Part shown: positions 1,323-20,090 of the stretch, in pieces | How the letters are laid out: the number at the start of each line of letters is the position of its first letter | Numbering within the stretch: position 1 is the first letter of the stretch | Assembly: GCF_001677475.2 (NCBI RefSeq) | Contig: NZ_CP015229.1 | Reading direction: 5' to 3' (one strand) | DNA from: Escherichia coli | GTDB taxonomy: Bacteria; Pseudomonadota; Gammaproteobacteria; Enterobacterales; Enterobacteriaceae | DNA: 64,000 nt | Program-made: the position numbers and the translations under genes | Notes under the pieces: generated by a model | Told to the model about the DNA's origin: nothing | Databases searched by the model: none | What the model saw: only the letters and a program-made list of their open reading frames with translations

Positions 1323-3263
1323 TCATGCCGCGGCATCCGCGTTGTTCACTTCCACCGCAATGCTGTCAATCAGCACCGGGTAAGTCGCATTCCTGGTAAT
1401 GTCTGTCACATGCATCTTATCCGCCGCAAAGGCACTGACCGGTGACTGCGTCAGCGTGAACGGTGTACCATCCTGACCATCAATAACCGGCGTTACCTGA
1501 AGGCTGTTATTCCCGGCAAAGCGGAAAGCCAGCGTATGCCATTCATTATCAAATGCGCCAAGGGTTCCCAGTTTCTGGTTATTTGTCGCCACTTTCGCAT
1601 TGTGGTACATCACATTCAGGTCTTTTGCGTCTGTCTGGATGTAAAACGATGCCAGCAGATTATTCCCTGCATCCCCTGTCAGGGTGACACCCTGTGGCAG
1701 AGAGGAAACCGGCCAGTAAAGCGCCATGACATACTGGTTTGCCACCAGTTCACCGGATGCCTTAAAGCGGCAACTGATTAAACCTCCATTTTTCAGCAGT
1801 TCAGCGCCAGTACCGGCATCATGCTCCAGATGCCATGACCCTTTACCTGTCTCCTTGCTCAGCTTCATCGCGGTTCCACCTGTTGCACCCTCATCAGCAA
1901 CAATTTCCGCTTTACCTCCGCCAGCACTCCAGCCCTGTTCGGTCAGCTTCCCTTCAGACTCACTGGCCCGGTAAGACAGCAGTGTTGTGGTGCTTACCGC
2001 TTCACTTTCTGACGGTGACGGCGTCGGTGCGCCAGTTTCAGAAGATGGAACATCGACTTTTACTGTGGTTCTCCCGGCATGAACCAGAATCGCCGTTGCC
2101 AGACGGTCGGAAATAATCCCACGGCGTGCCCAGGAGCTGAAATGGCTCGCCCTGTCCTGTGACGTCCAGGTGGCTGAGCTGTCACGCCATTTCGAACCGT
2201 AATAACCGATACCCGGAATGTCCGGGTCTTCTTCCGGTTTGTTCGTCGGCACATTCACCCCGTTCTCATCGGTCATGAACGGTACGAAATGGATATTCTT
2301 TTCCGTTTTGTTTTTATAGCTGCCGTACACCATCTGGTAGGTGGATTCGTTCTTCTGCTTCCAGAAATACGTCGTGTCCCCACATATCCAGGGAACACCG
2401 CCAGCAGAGCCACCGACGCACTGGCCAGCCATATCCGCCAGGTCTGCACGGAATTTATCAACCAGCGCACCAAACTGTGCTGCGTGATTTGCCGGCGTAC
2501 CGCCAAAATCAAATTCCCCCTGCATCCACACCACGGCAAACAGCACATTTTTCGGGTTCTTCTTCAGTGCTGCTTTTGTTCGACCTATAAGGTCCTTATA
2601 CAGGGGCTTGTCCACCCCCCAGCGCACTGAATTCTCCGAGGCACCGGTCGCGTCACTGTATGTGCCATCAGCTCCGGTGGTGAACGCTGAACCACCACGA
2701 CAGCACGGAACCAGCAGAATACCCGCATTCGCCGGTATAAACGGCAGCAGTTTTTTGGCGATATGCAGCCCCTGCCCCACGGTTCCGTACTGCCCCTTTG
2801 ACAGGTCCGCTTTCGGATGGTTAAGACGGCTCATGTCCTGCACATCATGCAGACAATGGTCCGCCGGAATGATGTCGTTATATTTACAGGCGACACCGCC
2901 CGGTGTCACCGTACTGCGACGCGCCAGCTGCTTAATACGCGGCTCCGGACGGTCATATGTCTCCGGTAGCGGAAGACCTTCACCGTATGACATACCATTG
3001 GACTGACCGGCAAGCGCAATCACATAGTAATATTCTGGCGCAACAGAAGGATTCGTTGAGGTCGTCGGACGGTTGCCTGGCTCCTCAGGTGATGAGATGC
3101 TTCCCTCGCTCACAACTGGCTGGATGAATTCCGCACCATAACCAGCTGTCGAAATCAGCGCACTACCATAAGGCTGCCACCCTTCCTTCAGTTTTTGAGT
3201 TATTCGTTCCGCAAGATCGGACGGCGATACCGCCCTGACCACGTCATAGTGTTTAAATGCCAT
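1323..3263 (-). CDS. nanS-p: Prophage sialate O-acetylesterase-like protein (NanS-p family)
   Basis: 646-aa ORF starting MAFKHYDVVRAVSPSDLAERITQKLKEGWQPYG (DUF1737-like N-terminus) followed by esterase-like core; located between tRNAs and lysis genes as in Stx-type prophages. Confidence 0.7.
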   Translation of the reverse strand: MAFKHYDVVRAVSPSDLAERITQKLKEGWQPYGSALISTAGYGAEFIQPVVSEGSISSPEEPGNRPTTSTNPSVAPEYYYVIALAGQSNGMSYGEGLPLPETYDRPEPRIKQLARRSTVTPGGVACKYNDIIPADHCLHDVQDMSRLNHPKADLSKGQYGTVGQGLHIAKKLLPFIPANAGILLVPCCRGGSAFTTGADGTYSDATGASENSVRWGVDKPLYKDLIGRTKAALKKNPKNVLFAVVWMQGEFDFGGTPANHAAQFGALVDKFRADLADMAGQCVGGSAGGVPWICGDTTYFWKQKNESTYQMVYGSYKNKTEKNIHFVPFMTDENGVNVPTNKPEEDPDIPGIGYYGSKWRDSSATWTSQDRASHFSSWARRGIISDRLATAILVHAGRTTVKVDVPSSETGAPTPSPSESEAVSTTTLLSYRASESEGKLTEQGWSAGGGKAEIVADEGATGGTAMKLSKETGKGSWHLEHDAGTGAELLKNGGLISCRFKASGELVANQYVMALYWPVSSLPQGVTLTGDAGNNLLASFYIQTDAKDLNVMYHNAKVATNNQKLGTLGAFDNEWHTLAFRFAGNNSLQVTPVIDGQDGTPFTLTQSPVSAFAADKMHVTDITRNATYPVLIDSIAVEVNNADAAA

Positions 3264-15344: not shown

Positions 15345-16427
15345 TTACCCCCTGAACCCCGGCGGAATTTCGGTGTCCGGTTCAGAAATGTGGTTCACGC
15401 AACGCTGGCTGACTGCGCCAGCCTTCGGCAGCGACCACGGATTTTCGAAATTCCTGTTCGGGCCAAAAAACGTCGATGCCTGCTGAACAAATTCAGTTCC
15501 CGCTTTCCCGGTAGCCTCCAGGTATCTTGCGTAACGCCTCACGCCATCCAGCACGACATCCGGTGACACCCCTTCGCGTAATCTGGCCCTCCAGGCATTG
15601 AACGCGGATTTCTTCGGGTTTGACCCTGCCCGATGCGGATATTCACGCCAGACCCGTTCGAACACGTCAGGATAATCAACTCGTCCCGCAGACGGTCCCG
15701 GCATCGCCCGGGTTAACCCAATCGGCTTCCCGCTCATCGCGGAATCGGCTTCAGGCTGCTGCGGTTGGTGTTGTTGCTCCGGTTCGACGAGCAGCACCTG
15801 CTGCACACAACGCCCGGAATCTGCTTCCGGTGTCATGCCAGCTGGTCCTGGACGTTCAGTCAGAACGGGACAAGAATCCACCAGTGGGTCCGTGGCGATT
15901 TTTTCGCCATGGACCAGAAGGGTTTTATCTCTTTCCTGTTCCTGTTCCTGTTCCTGTTCTTGGCTTGAAAGGGGCTCTGAAGGGGCTTCAATTTTCCGAC
16001 ATGATTCACGTCTGACATCCAGGTGGAAATCATCCTTATATCTATCATAAAAGGATGATAAAAAAGGATTTTCCAGCAACGCGGAATATTCATTTCTTAC
16101 CCCAGCACAACGGTTATCGCCTGGTTTCAGCGCTTCACCAACCTGCCATGCTGCCATTTCATGCACCCATACAACCTCAGAATCATGGTCATAGCTGCAA
16201 AAACCAGCCTCGCAAGCCATTTGAAGCCCCTTAGAAGCCCCTTCAGGATCAAGTCCGGTTTCGTGAGCAATGTACAAAACAGGCAGGTAATAAAGGCCCA
16301 GCATATTGGAATGAGGCGAGGTCATCATATACAACGCCACTACCATACATTCCGGACCAGACTTCCTTAGTTTTCGCCCTGTATCGCCTAACCAGAACTG
16401 AGGTGAAATTGTTGCGTAATTACGCAT
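15345..16427 (-). CDS. Replication initiator (lambda O-like replisome organizer)
   Basis: 360-aa ORF between cII and DnaC-like gene; internal repeats and an AT-rich tract inside the coding region resemble an O-gene-embedded origin. Confidence 0.55.
   Translation of the reverse strand: MRNYATISPQFWLGDTGRKLRKSGPECMVVALYMMTSPHSNMLGLYYLPVLYIAHETGLDPEGASKGLQMACEAGFCSYDHDSEVVWVHEMAAWQVGEALKPGDNRCAGVRNEYSALLENPFLSSFYDRYKDDFHLDVRRESCRKIEAPSEPLSSQEQEQEQEQERDKTLLVHGEKIATDPLVDSCPVLTERPGPAGMTPEADSGRCVQQVLLVEPEQQHQPQQPEADSAMSGKPIGLTRAMPGPSAGRVDYPDVFERVWREYPHRAGSNPKKSAFNAWRARLREGVSPDVVLDGVRRYARYLEATGKAGTEFVQQASTFFGPNRNFENPWSLPKAGAVSQRCVNHISEPDTEIPPGFRG
15935..15958. repeat. Hexanucleotide tandem repeat (CCTGTT)x4 inside replication gene
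   Basis: Perfect four-unit repeat; encodes (EQ)n on minus strand. Confidence 0.9.
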
Positions 16428-16460
16428 AGTCCCCTCGCATACAAGATTTACTCCATACCG

Positions 16461-16610
16461 CAGACGGTCCCGGTATCTCCCGGGTTAACCCAATCGGCTT
16501 CAGGCTGCTGCGGTTGGTGTGACTGCACATTGGTGTGACTGCACATCTTCACAGACGGTCCCGGTATCTCCGGGTTAACCCAATCGGCTTCAGGCTGCTG
16601 CGGTTGGTGT
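16461..16610. repeat. Two direct copies of a ~60-bp repeat, third copy at 15689-15775 inside the replication gene; includes tandem 15-bp repeat
   Basis: cagacggtcccggtatctc(c)cgggttaacccaatcggcttcaggctgctgcggttggtgt at 16461-16520 and 16552-16610; ggtgtgactgcacat duplicated at 16516-16545. Confidence 0.85.
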
Positions 16611-16680
16611 TGTTGCTGGCGAAATTCTTCCAGATGTGGCAGAATTATTACCGTGTATTGCTCCATGCCCTGCCTGAATA

Positions 16681-16977
16681 TCAGATATTCATCAGGATTT
16701 GCTCAGAACGTCCGGCCCCAACCGGACGTTTTTTATTTGCATGAACGTTAATGGCATGCTGGAAAGCCCGGCTGATCGGACTGATATCAGATGCCATCTG
16801 GAACGCGCATAAAATCGCCGCGATGTATCGCCAGTCGGTACGACTGACCTTCGATTCATGGCAGCCAATCATCTTCGCCAGTCCCCTTTGCGTCAGAGCT
16901 GACAGGTTGATAAGTAAATCCGTTTCAGCGCGATCGATATCGCGCTGCGACAGTTTGCTGTAACTTGTTTGTGACAT
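16681..16977 (-). CDS. cII: CII-like transcriptional activator
   Basis: C-terminus KKRPVGAGRSEQILMNI matches lambda CII C-terminus (KKRPAATERSEQIQMEF); position between cro and replication gene. Confidence 0.75.
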   Translation of the reverse strand: MSQTSYSKLSQRDIDRAETDLLINLSALTQRGLAKMIGCHESKVSRTDWRYIAAILCAFQMASDISPISRAFQHAINVHANKKRPVGAGRSEQILMNI

Positions 16978-17120
16978 TTCTTATGATTCCAAATAGTGAA
17001 TAGTTAGTTGAAAGGTATGCGTGGAAACGCATATGGCCTTAATTGGTCAGATATCTTGGGCCTCGCTTTTCAGCGACGTAGGACGAATGTCCATTGTGAA
17101 AAGAGCAGTGTTAATTGAGC

Positions 17121-17360
17121 TTATCGTTGACGATCAGGATTCGCTACATTGCGTAACCATTCGGCGGTAAATTTGCCATCAGATGCATTGGCGAGAATTT
17201 CCGAATAGTTGGTTTTCATCGTGTATTCGGTGCGAGGTAACGCTCCGTTTTTAACCCACTTATGAATTGCAACATTTGACAACCCGCATAAACGGGCAGC
17301 GACTGTTTGACCACCAACAGCTTTTACTGCGAATTGTATCGGATTCATACTGCTATCCAT
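17121..17360 (-). CDS. Cro-like HTH repressor
   Basis: 79-aa ORF with HTH-like QTVAARLCGLSNVAIHKWVK; divergent from cI. Confidence 0.6.
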   Translation of the reverse strand: MDSSMNPIQFAVKAVGGQTVAARLCGLSNVAIHKWVKNGALPRTEYTMKTNYSEILANASDGKFTAEWLRNVANPDRQR

Positions 17361-17440
17361 TAATTTAGTTAACTTCGAGTTAATGTTAACTATTAGCTGA
17401 CAGTTATGTCAACTATGTTTGATAATTAACGTATGGTTAA
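17361..17440. promoter_or_regulatory. Divergent cro/cI promoter-operator region (OR)
   Basis: Two perfect TTAAC-N5-GTTAA palindromes (17369-17383, 17426-17440); rc TTGACA at 17407-17412 for cro; CTGACA-18bp-GATAAT ending 7 nt before cI ATG. Confidence 0.5.
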
Positions 17441-18203
17441 AAAAGATGAACTAAAAGAAGCGTTCTCAAAGAGACTACTACAGGCATTATTAGATGCAGG
17501 TGTGGGCGGACGCGGTCAGGCTAAGCGGATTCAGAATGCAATGAAACTGCGAGGCATTGATATCTCTGAACCGGGGATCTGGAAATGGCTTAATTCTGCA
17601 TCAATTCCAGAAAAAACAAGTATTTTGGCACTTAGTGACTGGCTTTCCGTGAGGCCGGAGTGGTTGGAGTATGGCAGTAACGAGCCATCCGTAAAACAGC
17701 GACCTTCAATTCCAAACGAATCAGAATGGGGTTCCCTTGAAACTTGGGACAGAAATACACCACTACGAGATGATGAAGTTGAGGTGCCATATCTGAAAGA
17801 CATTGAGTTTGCATGCGGTGACGGAAGAGTTCATTGCGAAGATCATAATGGTTTTAAATTACGCTTCTCAAAAGCAACCCTGCGCCGTGTCGGAGCTAAC
17901 AGTGATGGTTCTGGTGTGCTTTGTTTTCCGGCTACTGGTGATAGCATGGAGCCCGTGATACCAGATGGAACAACAATCGCAGTAGACACAAACAACAAAC
18001 GTATTGTTGACGGCAAACTCTACGCCATCGCACAGCCTGGTGTCGGTGATGAAAAACTGAAGCGTATAAAACTATTGTACAGACGCCCCGGTGGAAAACT
18101 AATCATACGCAGTTATAACAGTGAAGAGTACCCTGACGAAGAAGCAGATACTCAAAGCGTGGAGATTATCGGAAAAGTTTTCTGGTATTCAGTTCTGCTT
18201 TAG
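17433..18203 (+). CDS. cI: CI-type prophage repressor (HTH N-terminus, S24 LexA-like C-terminus)
   Basis: 256-aa ORF with GDSMEP active-site motif and K-containing LexA-like C-terminal domain. Confidence 0.85.
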   Translation: MVKKDELKEAFSKRLLQALLDAGVGGRGQAKRIQNAMKLRGIDISEPGIWKWLNSASIPEKTSILALSDWLSVRPEWLEYGSNEPSVKQRPSIPNESEWGSLETWDRNTPLRDDEVEVPYLKDIEFACGDGRVHCEDHNGFKLRFSKATLRRVGANSDGSGVLCFPATGDSMEPVIPDGTTIAVDTNNKRIVDGKLYAIAQPGVGDEKLKRIKLLYRRPGGKLIIRSYNSEEYPDEEADTQSVEIIGKVFWYSVLL

Positions 18204-18213
18204 CCCCTCTCCC

Positions 18214-18237
18214 CCCGGCCTCAGAGCCGGGTTTTTT
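18214..18237 (+). terminator. Intrinsic terminator after cI
   Basis: Hairpin CCCGGC-ctcaga-GCCGGG followed by TTTTTT. Confidence 0.55.
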
Positions 18238-18366
18238 ATTAACCCAGCTAGCCAAAACTCATCTATCCTAGCTTCTATACCCCTTCATACTTGATAACCG
18301 TCGCTCACCGAACAAGCAATAATAATTAACTAAAAATCAAAAACATAGAATTTCCCCACAATAATT

Positions 18367-18409
18367 TTAACTTTTGGTTATTGACTAATGCTAACCAACA
18401 GTTAATAAT
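18367..18409 (+). promoter_or_regulatory. Candidate pL with operator half-sites (OL)
   Basis: TTGACT(18381-18386)-17bp-AATAAT(18404-18409); operator-like TTAAC-N5-GTTAT (18367-18381) and TAAC-N5-GTTA (18392-18404). Confidence 0.4.
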
Positions 18410-18445
18410 CATTTCACCAACAGGTCACCGATAACAACGCGGCCC

Positions 18446-18473
18446 CAATTGGAAAGCTCTTTAAACAACGTCG
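18446..18473 (+). promoter_or_regulatory. Candidate nutL (boxA + boxB hairpin)
   Basis: GCTCTTTAA (boxA-like) followed 5 nt later by GTCGA-acac-TCGAC hairpin, between putative pL and N-like gene. Confidence 0.35.
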
Positions 18474-18599
18474 AACACTCGACTACGTGGCTGCAAAGCC
18501 AGATCGCCCAACCGCATAAGCTGTCGGGTGCAATGCCGAAGCAATCATCTCAGGGGAGGCTTCGAGATTGCATCGCCAAAGTTTATTCGGGAGAAATCT

Positions 18600-18872
18600 A
18601 TGTCCAGAAAAACAGAATTTAAAGGCACCGCAGCTTCCCGCCGCAGAGCACGCAGGGCCGAGCTTCAGGGTCTGGAGGCATCAAGCGCTGATAAACTGCA
18701 CCGCCCCACACCTTCACGGGTGTACTTACAGTGCAAACGCAAAGCCGCAATGCGAGCTGAAGTAGTCACGATAACGACATTAACCAGAAAATATGAAGGC
18801 TCTACTTGTCTTCCAAACACTGCACTTTACGCAGCTGGCTATCGCAAATCAGGAACAATAACAGCGAGGTGA
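18600..18872 (+). CDS. N-like antiterminator with arginine-rich motif
   Basis: 90-aa ORF; N-terminal TAASRRRARRAELQGLE resembles lambda N ARM (QTRRRERRAEKQAQW); first gene right of cI. Confidence 0.55.
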   Translation: MSRKTEFKGTAASRRRARRAELQGLEASSADKLHRPTPSRVYLQCKRKAAMRAEVVTITTLTRKYEGSTCLPNTALYAAGYRKSGTITAR

Positions 18873-18875
18873 TTG

Positions 18876-19589
18876 ATGACCACGCCTTCAGTTTTGCCGC
18901 AAAAATTATGGCGTCCGCTTGCAGAGATTAAAAACTTCGTTGAAAAAATGCCTGATGGTGTTCGCCTTACGGAGGTTACAAAAAAAGTTAAGACGTTTGC
19001 CGAACTGTCAGGAAAAGAGAGAAACCAGCTCATCGATTTTATCGATAAACGGGAAAGCATCATTGTATTTAAGGTCAGAAAAGAAGGTTCTGGTAACGGA
19101 GTAACCTTTTTCCGCCACAAAAAATATGGATATCCCAAACGGGAAGGAAACGTCACAATCATTAAGGACCTTCAATCAAAATTATGTACCAAATGCGGGC
19201 AGACAAAATCAGTCAATGATTTTTATTCAGATGCCAGCAAGCGTGACGGGAGAGCCATTTATTGCAAGAAGTGCGAATCTGCAATGAAACGCTCACGCAG
19301 AGAATGCAACAAATTAATTCTGCAACAACAGGAACCTGAAATGAATAACCTCAAAGCAGTATCACCTTCACCAGAAACACTCAGAAAACAGGCTGAAGAA
19401 TTGCTGAAAGCCGCCGAAATTGCGGAGAAAAAACGCCAGGAAGATGATGTATTCAACAAAAAACTTGCGCCCTTAAAACTTGAAATTCTTCAGGCCGCCG
19501 GAAAAATGCAGCTTAAACTGGACGAATTCATCGACTGTATGGATGAAATGAATAAAGCAGTTCAGAAGCTTAAAGAGCTGACCGCCTGA
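18876..19589 (+). CDS. Hypothetical protein with Cys4 zinc-ribbon and C-terminal coiled coil (237 aa)
   Basis: CTKCGQ...CKKCES; GAGGTG upstream of ATG; follows N stop directly. Confidence 0.5.
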   Translation: MTTPSVLPQKLWRPLAEIKNFVEKMPDGVRLTEVTKKVKTFAELSGKERNQLIDFIDKRESIIVFKVRKEGSGNGVTFFRHKKYGYPKREGNVTIIKDLQSKLCTKCGQTKSVNDFYSDASKRDGRAIYCKKCESAMKRSRRECNKLILQQQEPEMNNLKAVSPSPETLRKQAEELLKAAEIAEKKRQEDDVFNKKLAPLKLEILQAAGKMQLKLDEFIDCMDEMNKAVQKLKELTA

Positions 19590-19620
19590 TATTAATAAAT
19601 TGCAACTACCGGAGTTAACT

Positions 19621-19977
19621 ATGAACGAAACAGAACTGAAGCACATTATCGCCCTGCTTCTGGAAGATGCCAGACAGGTTTATCGACTTAGCCCAAACTC
19701 CGCAACGCAGGAACGCATCCGGATGGCAGAAAAAGCGCTGAAACAGGAGAGTGAAAATAACATATCCGAAGTTAGCGCGAATGGTGAAAATGAAGCAATA
19801 GAAATAAACAGCAATATCAGCGACGGCGTAATAGCTTCATCCCACAAGACAATTCTCATGGGCGCACGACTTCTGGAGGTGATTACGAGTGAGCTTGAAA
19901 AGAACGGCATCAAGCCCACCCCTTGTTATTTAGAGTGTGTGTTAAATGTTATTGCTTACTCGATGTTCCGTCGGTGA
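19621..19977 (+). CDS. Hypothetical protein (~118 aa)
   Basis: ORF; start taken at MNETELKH. Confidence 0.45.
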   Translation: MNETELKHIIALLLEDARQVYRLSPNSATQERIRMAEKALKQESENNISEVSANGENEAIEINSNISDGVIASSHKTILMGARLLEVITSELEKNGIKPTPCYLECVLNVIAYSMFRR

Positions 19978-20090
19978 CAGATGAAAGTTTTCGATCAAGG
20001 AATGTTTCAAGTGCATCGTAAATAATGGAAATCGCCCCAGACGCCTGAGTAACACCCCCGCAGCAACATCCATGTATCAATATCCTCTTT

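Follow-up and report, generated by a model that had tools for sequence, protein, structure and literature searches.

The 64 kb stretch of E. coli DNA analysed here (the window, to which all positions refer) carries two real nut sites, nutL ahead of the N gene and nutR after cro, which share one four-part anatomy: a boxA of the rrn type ending in CAAY, a spacer hairpin, a UACG linker and a boxB hairpin. Very probably they are the nutL and nutR of a Stx lambdoid phage that follows the H-19B/VT2-Sakai design, in which N would bind the second hairpin of each site to bring about antitermination, the spacer hairpin serving as a 'reducer'. The original prediction of a lambda-type N/nut system, with nutL between pL and N and nutR after cro, is upheld by the gene layout, the N_peptide match, the motifs and the annotation of related phages.

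Phage Identity and Layout of the Immunity Region

The window represents a Stx-converting lambdoid phage that shares about 99% identity with POCJ13 and 75/02 Stx; the 2 kb between 16900 and 18900 shows 98.7–98.9% identity to the Stx phages phiSTEC1589-Stx1c, POCJ13 and 75/02 Stx. The gene order is lambdoid: cII and cro on the minus strand, cI on the plus strand, a terminator, pL, and N on the plus strand. The cII gene (16681–16977, minus strand) matches Pfam Phage_CII (E = 6.5e-26), while cI (17433–18203, plus strand) encodes a Peptidase_S24 domain and is followed by an intrinsic terminator recognised by a terminator scan (18214–18231). A cro-like gene of 79 aa, taken from the ORF list (17121–17360, minus strand), has a counterpart in POCJ13 that is annotated as a transcriptional repressor; its Pfam match, to the HTH-type YdaS family, is weak and falls under the curated cutoff.

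A consensus scan placed a candidate pL (TTGACT-17-AATAAT, 18381–18409, plus strand) 3′ of the cI terminator and 47 nt 5′ of the nutL boxA, and a candidate pR (TTGACA-18-TAACAT, 17383–17412, minus strand) 5′ of cro. Both show 10/12 matches and are consensus matches only, such matches being no commoner across the region than in shuffled sequence. Downstream of nutR and ahead of cII, the minus strand folds into a hairpin in the tR1 region (UAUGCGU-UUCC-ACGCAUA, 17016–17033), the sequence of which is invariant among the window, H-19B and VT2-Sakai. The VT2-Sakai record annotates this position as 'putative rho dependent terminator for pR transcript', and the nutR/tR1 segment of H-19B is in experimental use as a Rho-dependent terminator (PMC3526286). 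The cII gene would be the first to need read-through past tR1 for its expression. On the other side, a long hairpin (18516–18586, plus strand; MFE -33.5 kcal/mol, z = -2.1) lies between the nutL boxB and the Shine-Dalgarno sequence of N (GGGAG, 18589–18593, plus strand), and its homologue in VT2-Sakai scores z = -5.2. It occupies the same place as the RNase III-sensitive stem of the lambda N leader.

The N antiterminator gene (18600–18872, plus strand) encodes a protein of 90 aa that matches Pfam N_peptide (PF25694) over its full length, residues 1–90, with E = 4.1e-26 and a score of 91.9 bits (cutoff 27.9). It is 97.8% identical to the N of POCJ13, and with the N annotated in VT2-Sakai and numerous further Stx phages it has 85.6% identity, so that its earlier description as a divergent N protein does not hold. 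The ARM lies at about residues 8–24 (KGTAASRRRARRAELQG), and with this ARM (KGTAASRRRARRAELQ) and the N_peptide match the protein belongs with the lambdoid N proteins. Alignments with the N proteins of H-19B, ε34, P22 and lambda delimit three conserved modules: the ARM, an HRPTxSR segment and a C-terminal segment. The HRPTxSR segment and the C-terminal CLPNxALYAAGYRKSxxITAR of the window N are held in common with the N proteins of H-19B and P22, and the leucine of CLPN is the equivalent of H-19B L108, the site of a suppressor of RNA polymerase mutants. The leader from nutL to N is present in 63 phage records.

Anatomy of the Two nut Sites

The nutL site occupies 18456–18501 on the plus strand, 3′ of the candidate pL and 5′ of N (18600), and reads GCUCUUUAAACAAC / GUCGA-ACAC-UCGAC / UACG / UGGCU-GCAA-AGCCA. 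Its boxA is of the extended rrn type (GCUCUUUA-AACAAC, 18456–18469), and the 8-nt core, GCUCUUUA, is the rrn boxA core UGCUCUUUA (rrn sequence from PMC2724277). The CAAC tail is kept 5′ of the spacer hairpin in all relatives. The spacer hairpin follows at 18470–18483 (fold -5.7 kcal/mol, z = -3.6), then the UACG linker (18484–18487), which is unchanged in the nut alignments A2 and A4 and in 29/29 distinct nutL variants, and lastly boxB (18488–18501; fold -7.1 kcal/mol), a 5-bp stem closed by a GNRA tetraloop.

The original prediction had placed GCTCTTTAA and, 5 nt later, a GTCGA-ACAC-TCGAC hairpin at 18446–18473. Both strings and the gap of 5 nt (ACAAC) are correct, but the positions need shifting by about 10 nt: GCTCTTTAA lies at 18456–18464 and the hairpin at 18470–18483, so that the interval takes in boxA but stops 4 nt into the hairpin. 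The second hairpin of nutL (TGGCT-GCAA-AGCCA, 18488–18501) had been passed over, as had the first hairpin of nutR (GGAC-ATTC-GTCC, 17092–17081).

The nutR site (17106–17063, minus strand) lies between the stop of cro (17121) and the start of cII (16977), and reads GCUCUUUUCACAAU / GGAC-AUUC-GUCC / UACG / UCGCU-GAAA-AGCGA. Its extended boxA (GCUCUUUU-CACAAU, 17093–17106) has CAC-U in front, as in the rrn leader; the segment reads CAC-UGCUCUUUU-CACAAU, with UGCUCUUUU as the core. The rrn boxA-spacer is CACugcucuuuaacaauuua, or in a second rendering CACugcucuuuaACAAUuua (both PMC2724277), and because the boxAs of the window match it, the CAAY 5′ of each spacer hairpin is taken as the tail of an extended boxA. 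Both cores, GCUCUUUA at nutL and UGCUCUUUU at nutR, lie 5′ of boxB and fit the boxA consensus CGCUCUUA / UGCUCUUUA (PMC2724277). The spacer hairpin of nutR (17081–17092; fold -5.0 kcal/mol, z = -3.75) is identical in H-19B, VT2-Sakai, ε34 and one Enterobacter phage, and is joined by a UACG linker (17077–17080) to boxB (17063–17076; fold -7.6 kcal/mol, z = -3.4), again a 5-bp stem with a GNRA tetraloop. The same boxB 14-mer, TCGCTGAAAAGCGA, is labelled 'putative NutR - boxB' in the ε34 record.

At this site the interval first proposed, 17063–17105, was correct, with CTCTTTTCA lying inside GCTCTTTTCACAAT at 17106–17093 and the hairpin at 17076–17063, both on the minus strand. The hairpin had been written as TCGC-tgaaaa-GCGA; it is boxB as supposed, but the 6-nt loop gives way in the fold to a UCGCU/AGCGA stem with a GAAA tetraloop, and the U-A pair that closes this loop covaries to C-G and U.G in relatives. 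Nor does the loop match that of lambda boxB, as had been suggested, since GAAA has 4 nt and is one base short of the lambda GAAAA pentaloop.

Both composite motifs are rare in the window. The only two copies of GCTCTTTNNNCAAY in the 64 kb are those at the two nut sites, against 0.10 expected, and 0/100 shuffles reach two. The same holds for TACGTNGCTGNAAAGCNA, the motif that unites the nutL boxB with the nutR boxB, with two copies at these sites and nowhere else (expected 0.01). Folding, one of the checks proposed for the original prediction, recovered two hairpins at each site, and the MFE fold contains both at nutL and at nutR. The whole nut regions fold unexceptionally (z = -0.9 and -1.6), the single hairpins reaching z = -2.2 to -3.8; thermodynamics alone is weak, and the case is one of comparative evidence. 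Rfam covariance models gave no match with E ≤ 1 in 16000–20000, and we know of no Rfam model for nut or boxB.

Identity of boxB and Its Match to N

Because a single N recognises nutL and nutR, boxB must be an element common to both sites. The first hairpins of the two sites have neither stem nor loop in common, while the second hairpins are alike apart from one stem pair, G-C in one and C-G in the other, and the N of the GNRA loop, and are the only element, besides boxA and UACG, that nutL and nutR have in common. The nutL boxB is thus predicted to be UGGCU-GCAA-AGCCA, the counterpart of UCGCU-GAAA-AGCGA at nutR.

The pairing of boxB with N was followed across about 200 related loci, collected from viral contigs with two DNA-pattern scans, of which one took the nutR spacer hairpin as its anchor and the other UACG plus boxB. 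The N gene of each locus was placed by tblastn, ARM classes were read directly from the table of the loci, and N, nutL and nutR were all parsed in 104 loci. As the patterns came from the nut sites themselves, prevalence figures from this collection are biased; ARM class was never a selection criterion. Every locus with an ARM of the H-19B class (RRRERLKAKAL) carries GACAA loops at both nutL and nutR (36/36). Loci with an ARM of the RRR-x-RRA-xxQ class, which comprises 32 distinct N termini including that of the window, carry GNAA tetraloops at both sites in 67 of 68 cases, the remaining one being an ambiguous parse with a 5-nt 'GGCAA' loop at nutR. Loop class therefore fits ARM class in 103/104 loci, and the two classes never mix. 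In the window, the same boxB at nutL and nutR, fitting its own ARM, is found at 18488–18501 and 17076–17063 and not at 18470–18483. Its loops have 4 nt (GCAA and GAAA), and a five-nucleotide boxB loop with an extruded base, of the lambda and P22 kind, was not found at either site.

The boxB stem also covaries. Pair 1 occurs as UA, CG, AU or GC, pair 2 as GC, CG or AU, and pair 5 as UA, CG or UG. On alignment A4, 100% of the cells are paired and three of the five pairs show double changes; the covariation score is reached by 0/500 shuffles, and slid controls fall to 12–55% paired. Both MAFFT nut alignments, A2 and A4, misplace the gaps of the spacer hairpin, with its unequal loop and stem lengths, and A4 was used only for boxB, where its columns are clean.

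The combination of a GNRA-tetraloop boxB with an RRR-x-RRA-xxQ ARM may constitute a separate, experimentally uncharacterised class of N-boxB specificity, a reading to which we give an even chance. The tetraloop class is common in Stx phages of the VT2-Sakai type, in POCJ13-like phages and in ε34-like phages of Salmonella and Enterobacter, and no experimental study of an N/boxB pair of this class was found in the open-access literature. If it were truly orthogonal to the H-19B/P22 class, the difference between GACAA and GAAA, set in an otherwise nearly identical nutR module, would amount to a natural one-nucleotide specificity switch, and would offer a natural test of the role of the extruded loop base of lambda and P22, for example in NusA dependence.

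The Spacer Hairpin

The hairpin at 18470–18483 is a spacer hairpin of the H-19B type, and by analogy with that phage it most likely acts as a 'reducer'. Spacer dyads of this type are present at both sites of the window (18470–18483 and 17092–17081), in which the GACAA boxB and RRRERLKAKAL ARM of H-19B are absent. Its conservation had been named as a point on which the original prediction would stand or fall, and in relatives pairing is indeed kept at this position, as it is in the covarying stem of boxB.

Spacer hairpins were parsed explicitly from the TACG anchor and controlled with shuffles and slid anchors. A set of 29 distinct nutL variants was identified solely by position 5′ of N and by UACG-boxB, and in all 29 a hairpin fills the space from CAAC to UACG without a gap; its stem is GTCGA/TCGAC, GATTC/GAATC, GGTGA/TCACC or GATTC/GAGTC, and its loop, of 3–6 nt, is free in sequence. 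In the boxB-anchored sample, 52/57 distinct upstream variants carry a stem of 4 bp or more that directly abuts UACG, versus 4.5% in shuffles, and the five misses are stems of the GATTC type with an interior longer than the loop limit set. At least 10 unrelated stems occur with pairing kept, and hardly any variation is seen in the outermost G-C pair or in CAAY and UACG on either side. Phages with a GATTC-type nutL have no canonical boxA. The complement of the nutL spacer hairpin (18483–18470, minus strand) was flagged as terminator-like in a scan and was rejected, its stem being only 5 bp and the total of such matches equalling the shuffle expectation.

Folding of the spacer hairpin removes 12–14 nt from the RNA, so that only 10 single-stranded nucleotides part the boxA core from boxB at nutL and at nutR alike. 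For the corresponding dyad of H-19B, Neely and Friedman reportedly found in 2000 that breaking one arm inactivates NUT and that compensatory changes restore activity, while deletion of the dyad is said to have little effect, so that its role may be minor; the name 'reducer' is said to be theirs. They are also said to have found the H-19B boxA dispensable, with NusB and S10 not required. The role of boxA in the window is therefore uncertain; because the window has a consensus boxA at both sites, its dependence on boxA may differ from that of H-19B. Experiments on H-19B nutR describe two hairpins, the spacer and boxB, both of which are protected by N with NusA/NusG, boxA being left unprotected (PMC3526286).

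Proposed Mechanism and Alternative Readings

The early transcripts from pL and pR each carry a GCUCUUU(A/U)-CAAY boxA, a spacer hairpin of free sequence, UACG and a boxB (UNGCU/AGCNA). By homology with known N systems, the arginine-rich N terminus of the 90-aa N is predicted to bind boxB, with its GCAA loop at nutL and GAAA loop at nutR, while the HRPTxSR segment and the conserved C terminus would contact NusA and RNA polymerase, and boxA probably brings in NusB/S10. The N complex would then move with polymerase, suppressing tR1 before cII-O-P on the right and the terminators past N on the left. The spacer hairpin, as a presumed 'reducer', would act by folding and so taking its 12–14 nt out of the linear RNA.

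It is very improbable that the nutL boxB is instead GTCGA-ACAC-TCGAC, 5 nt past boxA in the manner of lambda, as originally put forward. That hairpin is real and stable (z = -3.6), stands at a lambda-like distance from boxA and is conserved as a structure in relatives, yet one N acts at both sites and the nutR spacer, GGAC-AUUC-GUCC, differs from it in stem and loop. In relatives its stem and loop vary freely, with no tracking of the ARM class of N, in contrast to the next hairpin (18488–18501), which matches the nutR boxB and the loop class of which follows the ARM class in every cleanly parsed locus: phages with identical N ARMs have ACAC, CTC, ACTC or ATC loops at this position, and a GATTC/GAATC stem is found with both ARM classes; the spacer hairpin therefore carries no N specificity. 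The homologous element of H-19B was assigned by experiment as a spacer and not as boxB (PMC3526286), and in the ε34 and VT2-Sakai annotations the second hairpin is where boxB lies or the nut feature ends. A different possibility, compatible with the assignment of boxB to the second hairpin, is that the spacer hairpin is active, either as a determinant of NusA binding or by hiding or presenting rut so as to tune Rho at nutR/tR1. This is rather unlikely, though the H-19B spacer is protected by Rho as well as by N with NusA/NusG, and Rho and NusA reportedly share their binding region there (PMC3526286). The near-invariant outer G-C pair, CAAY and UACG suggest recognition of the junction, and the sequence GGAC-AUUC-GUCC is kept in many phages, albeit in a sample selected by that sequence; GGAC/GTCC is still the commonest spacer stem in the boxB-anchored sample. 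Against an active spacer, stem and loop are otherwise free (at least 10 stems), which argues against sequence-specific recognition of the hairpin body. The H-19B results ascribed to Neely and Friedman also count against it, in that function was reportedly restored by compensatory changes and deletion reportedly mattered little.

It is barely credible that the motifs have no function, as remnants or chance matches, and that early read-through is independent of N and nut. The promoter and terminator calls in the window are consensus matches only, which would leave room for such a view, but the N gene is intact and under evident constraint directly 3′ of nutL in all relatives, and each composite motif is confined to its two expected positions. 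Both stems covary and the boxB loop co-varies with the N ARM, while the nutR-tR1 module is nearly identical to the experimentally active one of H-19B.

Comparison with Known Systems

VT2-Sakai (AP000422.1), an Stx2 phage of the Sp5 type, has the same four-part anatomy at both sites, and its leader from nutL to N is 91% identical to that of the window. The two phages have identical nutR boxBs (UCGCU-GAAA-AGCGA) and nutR spacer hairpins, and at nutL an identical boxA, GTCGA/TCGAC spacer stem and UGGCU/AGCCA boxB stem. They differ in the loop of the nutL boxB (GCAA in the window, GAAA in VT2-Sakai), in the loop of the nutL spacer (ACAC versus CUC) and in the tail of the nutR boxA (UUCACAAU versus UGUAACAAC), and the immunity region of VT2-Sakai (cI/cro) is unrelated to that of the window.

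With H-19B the window shares an identical nutR spacer hairpin (GGAC-AUUC-GUCC), UACG and boxB stem (UCGCU/AGCGA), and a three-way alignment of the nutR-tR1-cII leader of the window, H-19B and VT2-Sakai gave a mean column identity of about 92%. The nutL of H-19B likewise has a two-hairpin architecture. The boxB loop of H-19B, however, is a P22-like GACAA pentaloop, whereas that of the window is a GNAA tetraloop, a single-base indel apart (GA-AA versus GACAA), and the ARMs belong to different classes (RRRERLKAKAL versus RRRARRAELQ). The H-19B N has 127 aa and is 38% identical to that of the window, which is without about 37 of its central residues. H-19B nutL is without a canonical boxA, in contrast to the window, which has one at both sites; the nutLs of H-19B and ε34 have no GCUCUUU core but keep ACAAC.

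Comparison with the nut sites of lambda, 21 and P22, as the original prediction had proposed, puts the boxA-boxB spacing of 10 nt in the window within their 8–14 nt. Lambda and the window have in common the genome position, the order boxA-spacer-boxB, a 5-bp boxB stem, U-A closure and a G...A loop, and their ARMs are similar (AQTRRRERRAEKQ in lambda, AASRRRARRAELQ in the window), although by alignment position a counterpart of lambda Trp18 is missing from the window ARM. In lambda, boxB carries a pentaloop (GAAAA/GAAGA), in contrast to the genuine 4-nt GNRA loop of the window. The lambda pentaloop is said, after Legault in 1998, to take up a GNRA fold by extruding one base. The lambda spacer is short and linear, 8–9 nt without a hairpin (PMC2724277), where the window has a spacer hairpin, and the lambda boxA is CGCUCUUA rather than the rrn-type GCUCUUU(A/U). 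The HRPTxSR segment of the window N aligns with the NRPxLS (NRPILSL) region of lambda N, where lambda N(34–47) binds NusA AR1 (PMC2724277); the C-terminal halves of the two proteins are unrelated in sequence.

P22 gp24 and the window N have in common the C-terminal RNAP-binding segment, LPxxALYAAGxRKSxxITAR, and the P22 boxB (stem GCGCU/AGCGC) belongs to the same GNRA-like loop family. Unlike the window, P22 has a GACAA pentaloop, no spacer hairpin and, at nutL, a linear spacer of 11 nt. The N of phage 21 is identical to that of the window at 13/17 residues of the ARM and is otherwise unrelated. Its pL-boxA leader is visibly homologous to that of the window (CAGAYTGGCAGGCTCTTTAA), but its boxB, a stem of 7 bp (nutL) or 5 bp (nutR) with a CUAACC-type loop, is unrelated to the tetraloop. 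The phage 21 hairpins are UCUCAAC-CUAACC-GUUGAGA at nutL and UCACC-UCUAACCG-GGUGA at nutR, with boxA-boxB spacings of 12 and 14 nt. A boxB of the phage 21 type was considered for the window and rejected, as no such hairpin was found at the nut sites and the association of ARM with loop points to the tetraloop.

The Salmonella phage ε34, which is P22-like, has a nutR spacer hairpin and nutR boxB identical to those of the window, a GAAA tetraloop in its nutL boxB (CGGCU-GAAA-AGCCG) and an ARM of the same class (RRRERRAALQ). Its N has 120 aa and is 39% identical to that of the window. Both its nut sites are without a canonical boxA, and its nutL spacer stem is GATTC/GAATC. A 'novel BoxB specificity' was predicted for an ARM of this class in the 2008 paper on the ε34 genome (PMC2629481).

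Prior Annotation and Implications

The nut system of the window is an ordinary one, of the kind already described for H-19B and VT2-Sakai. It is mildly novel only in that a GNRA-tetraloop boxB, one loop nucleotide away from that of the H-19B class, co-occurs with an ARM class of its own; this pairing of loop class with ARM class, neat as a comparative result, was foreseen by the ε34 authors and is unsurprising to specialists. Early-operon read-through dependent on N lies upstream of Q, and hence of Shiga-toxin expression, and the true target of N matters when reporters or anti-virulence interference are designed.

Records of POCJ13, the nearest relative, and of POCJ13-like Stx phages have no nut annotation, while nutL and nutR are annotated in the record of 933W. 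In AP000422.1 (VT2-Sakai), 'putative N-utilization leftward' and 'rightward' are given over the homologous stretches as undivided blocks of 40 nt, which stop within the boxB loop and leave the sub-elements unmarked. The practical gain is therefore in the accuracy of annotation, the boundaries of boxA, spacer hairpin, UACG and boxB being transferable to dozens of Stx phage genomes.

Comparison of the Leader and boxB with Phage 21 and VT2-Sakai

The pL leader of phage 21 (CAGATTGGCAGGCTCTTTAACATCGACGGACTCTCAAC; nt 2440–2490 of locus L202) is visibly homologous to that shared by VT2-Sakai (nt 3196–3235 of locus L004) and the window (nt 18440–18483 of the stretch), CAGACTGGCAGGCTCTTTAAACAACGTCGACTCTCGAC, and the arginine-rich motifs of the phage 21 and window N proteins are identical at 13 of 17 positions. 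Despite this similarity in both leader and motif, the boxB hairpin of phage 21 is unrelated to that of Sakai and the window, a sequence pattern suggesting either a mosaic exchange or divergence exactly at the boxA/boxB junction.

The VT2-Sakai record (AP000422.1) carries two features annotated as 'putative N-utilization' (nt 3206–3246 and 562–601 of locus L004). Both end within the boxB loop (…TGGCTGAAA and …TCGCTGAA), so that the 3′ arm of boxB is cut off in each case; the published annotation is thus slightly wrong at these two sites.

The N Leader Hairpin and Start Codon

RNA folding of the N leader gave a long, extended hairpin (nt 18516–18586, + strand; MFE −33.5 kcal/mol, z = −2.1), located between the nutL boxB and the N Shine-Dalgarno sequence (GGGAG, nt 18589–18593, + strand). 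The homologous sequence of VT2-Sakai adopts the same fold (z = −5.2). This position corresponds to that of the RNase III-sensitive stem in the N leader of lambda, a modulator of N translation.

A longer reading frame of 114 aa, with a GTG start (nt 18528–18872, + strand), begins upstream of the 90 aa N ORF, and it is this 114 aa form that is annotated as N of VT2-Sakai in NC_000902. Conservation of the N terminus (MSRKTEFKG/MTRRTQFKG) and the presence of the GGGAG Shine-Dalgarno sequence support the ATG at nt 18600 as the probable start, in preference to the upstream GTG.

Other Features of the Region

On the strand antisense to cII, opposite the 3′ end of the gene, is a strong intrinsic terminator (nt 16705–16732, + strand) with an 11 bp stem and a T run after it; its placement is like that of the oop RNA terminator of lambda and P22.

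Two 41 nt direct repeats (CCGGGTTAACCCAATCGGCTTCAGGCTGCTGCGGTTGGTGT; nt 16480–16520 and 16570–16610), 100% identical and 90 nt apart, are found within a small ORF (nt 16448–16666, − strand). Partial copies (nt 15708–15771 and 15686–15734; 68–93% identical) occur about 770 nt away, inside a replication-initiator-like ORF of 360 aa (nt 15345–16427, − strand). The repeats could represent a duplicated gene fragment or be origin-related.
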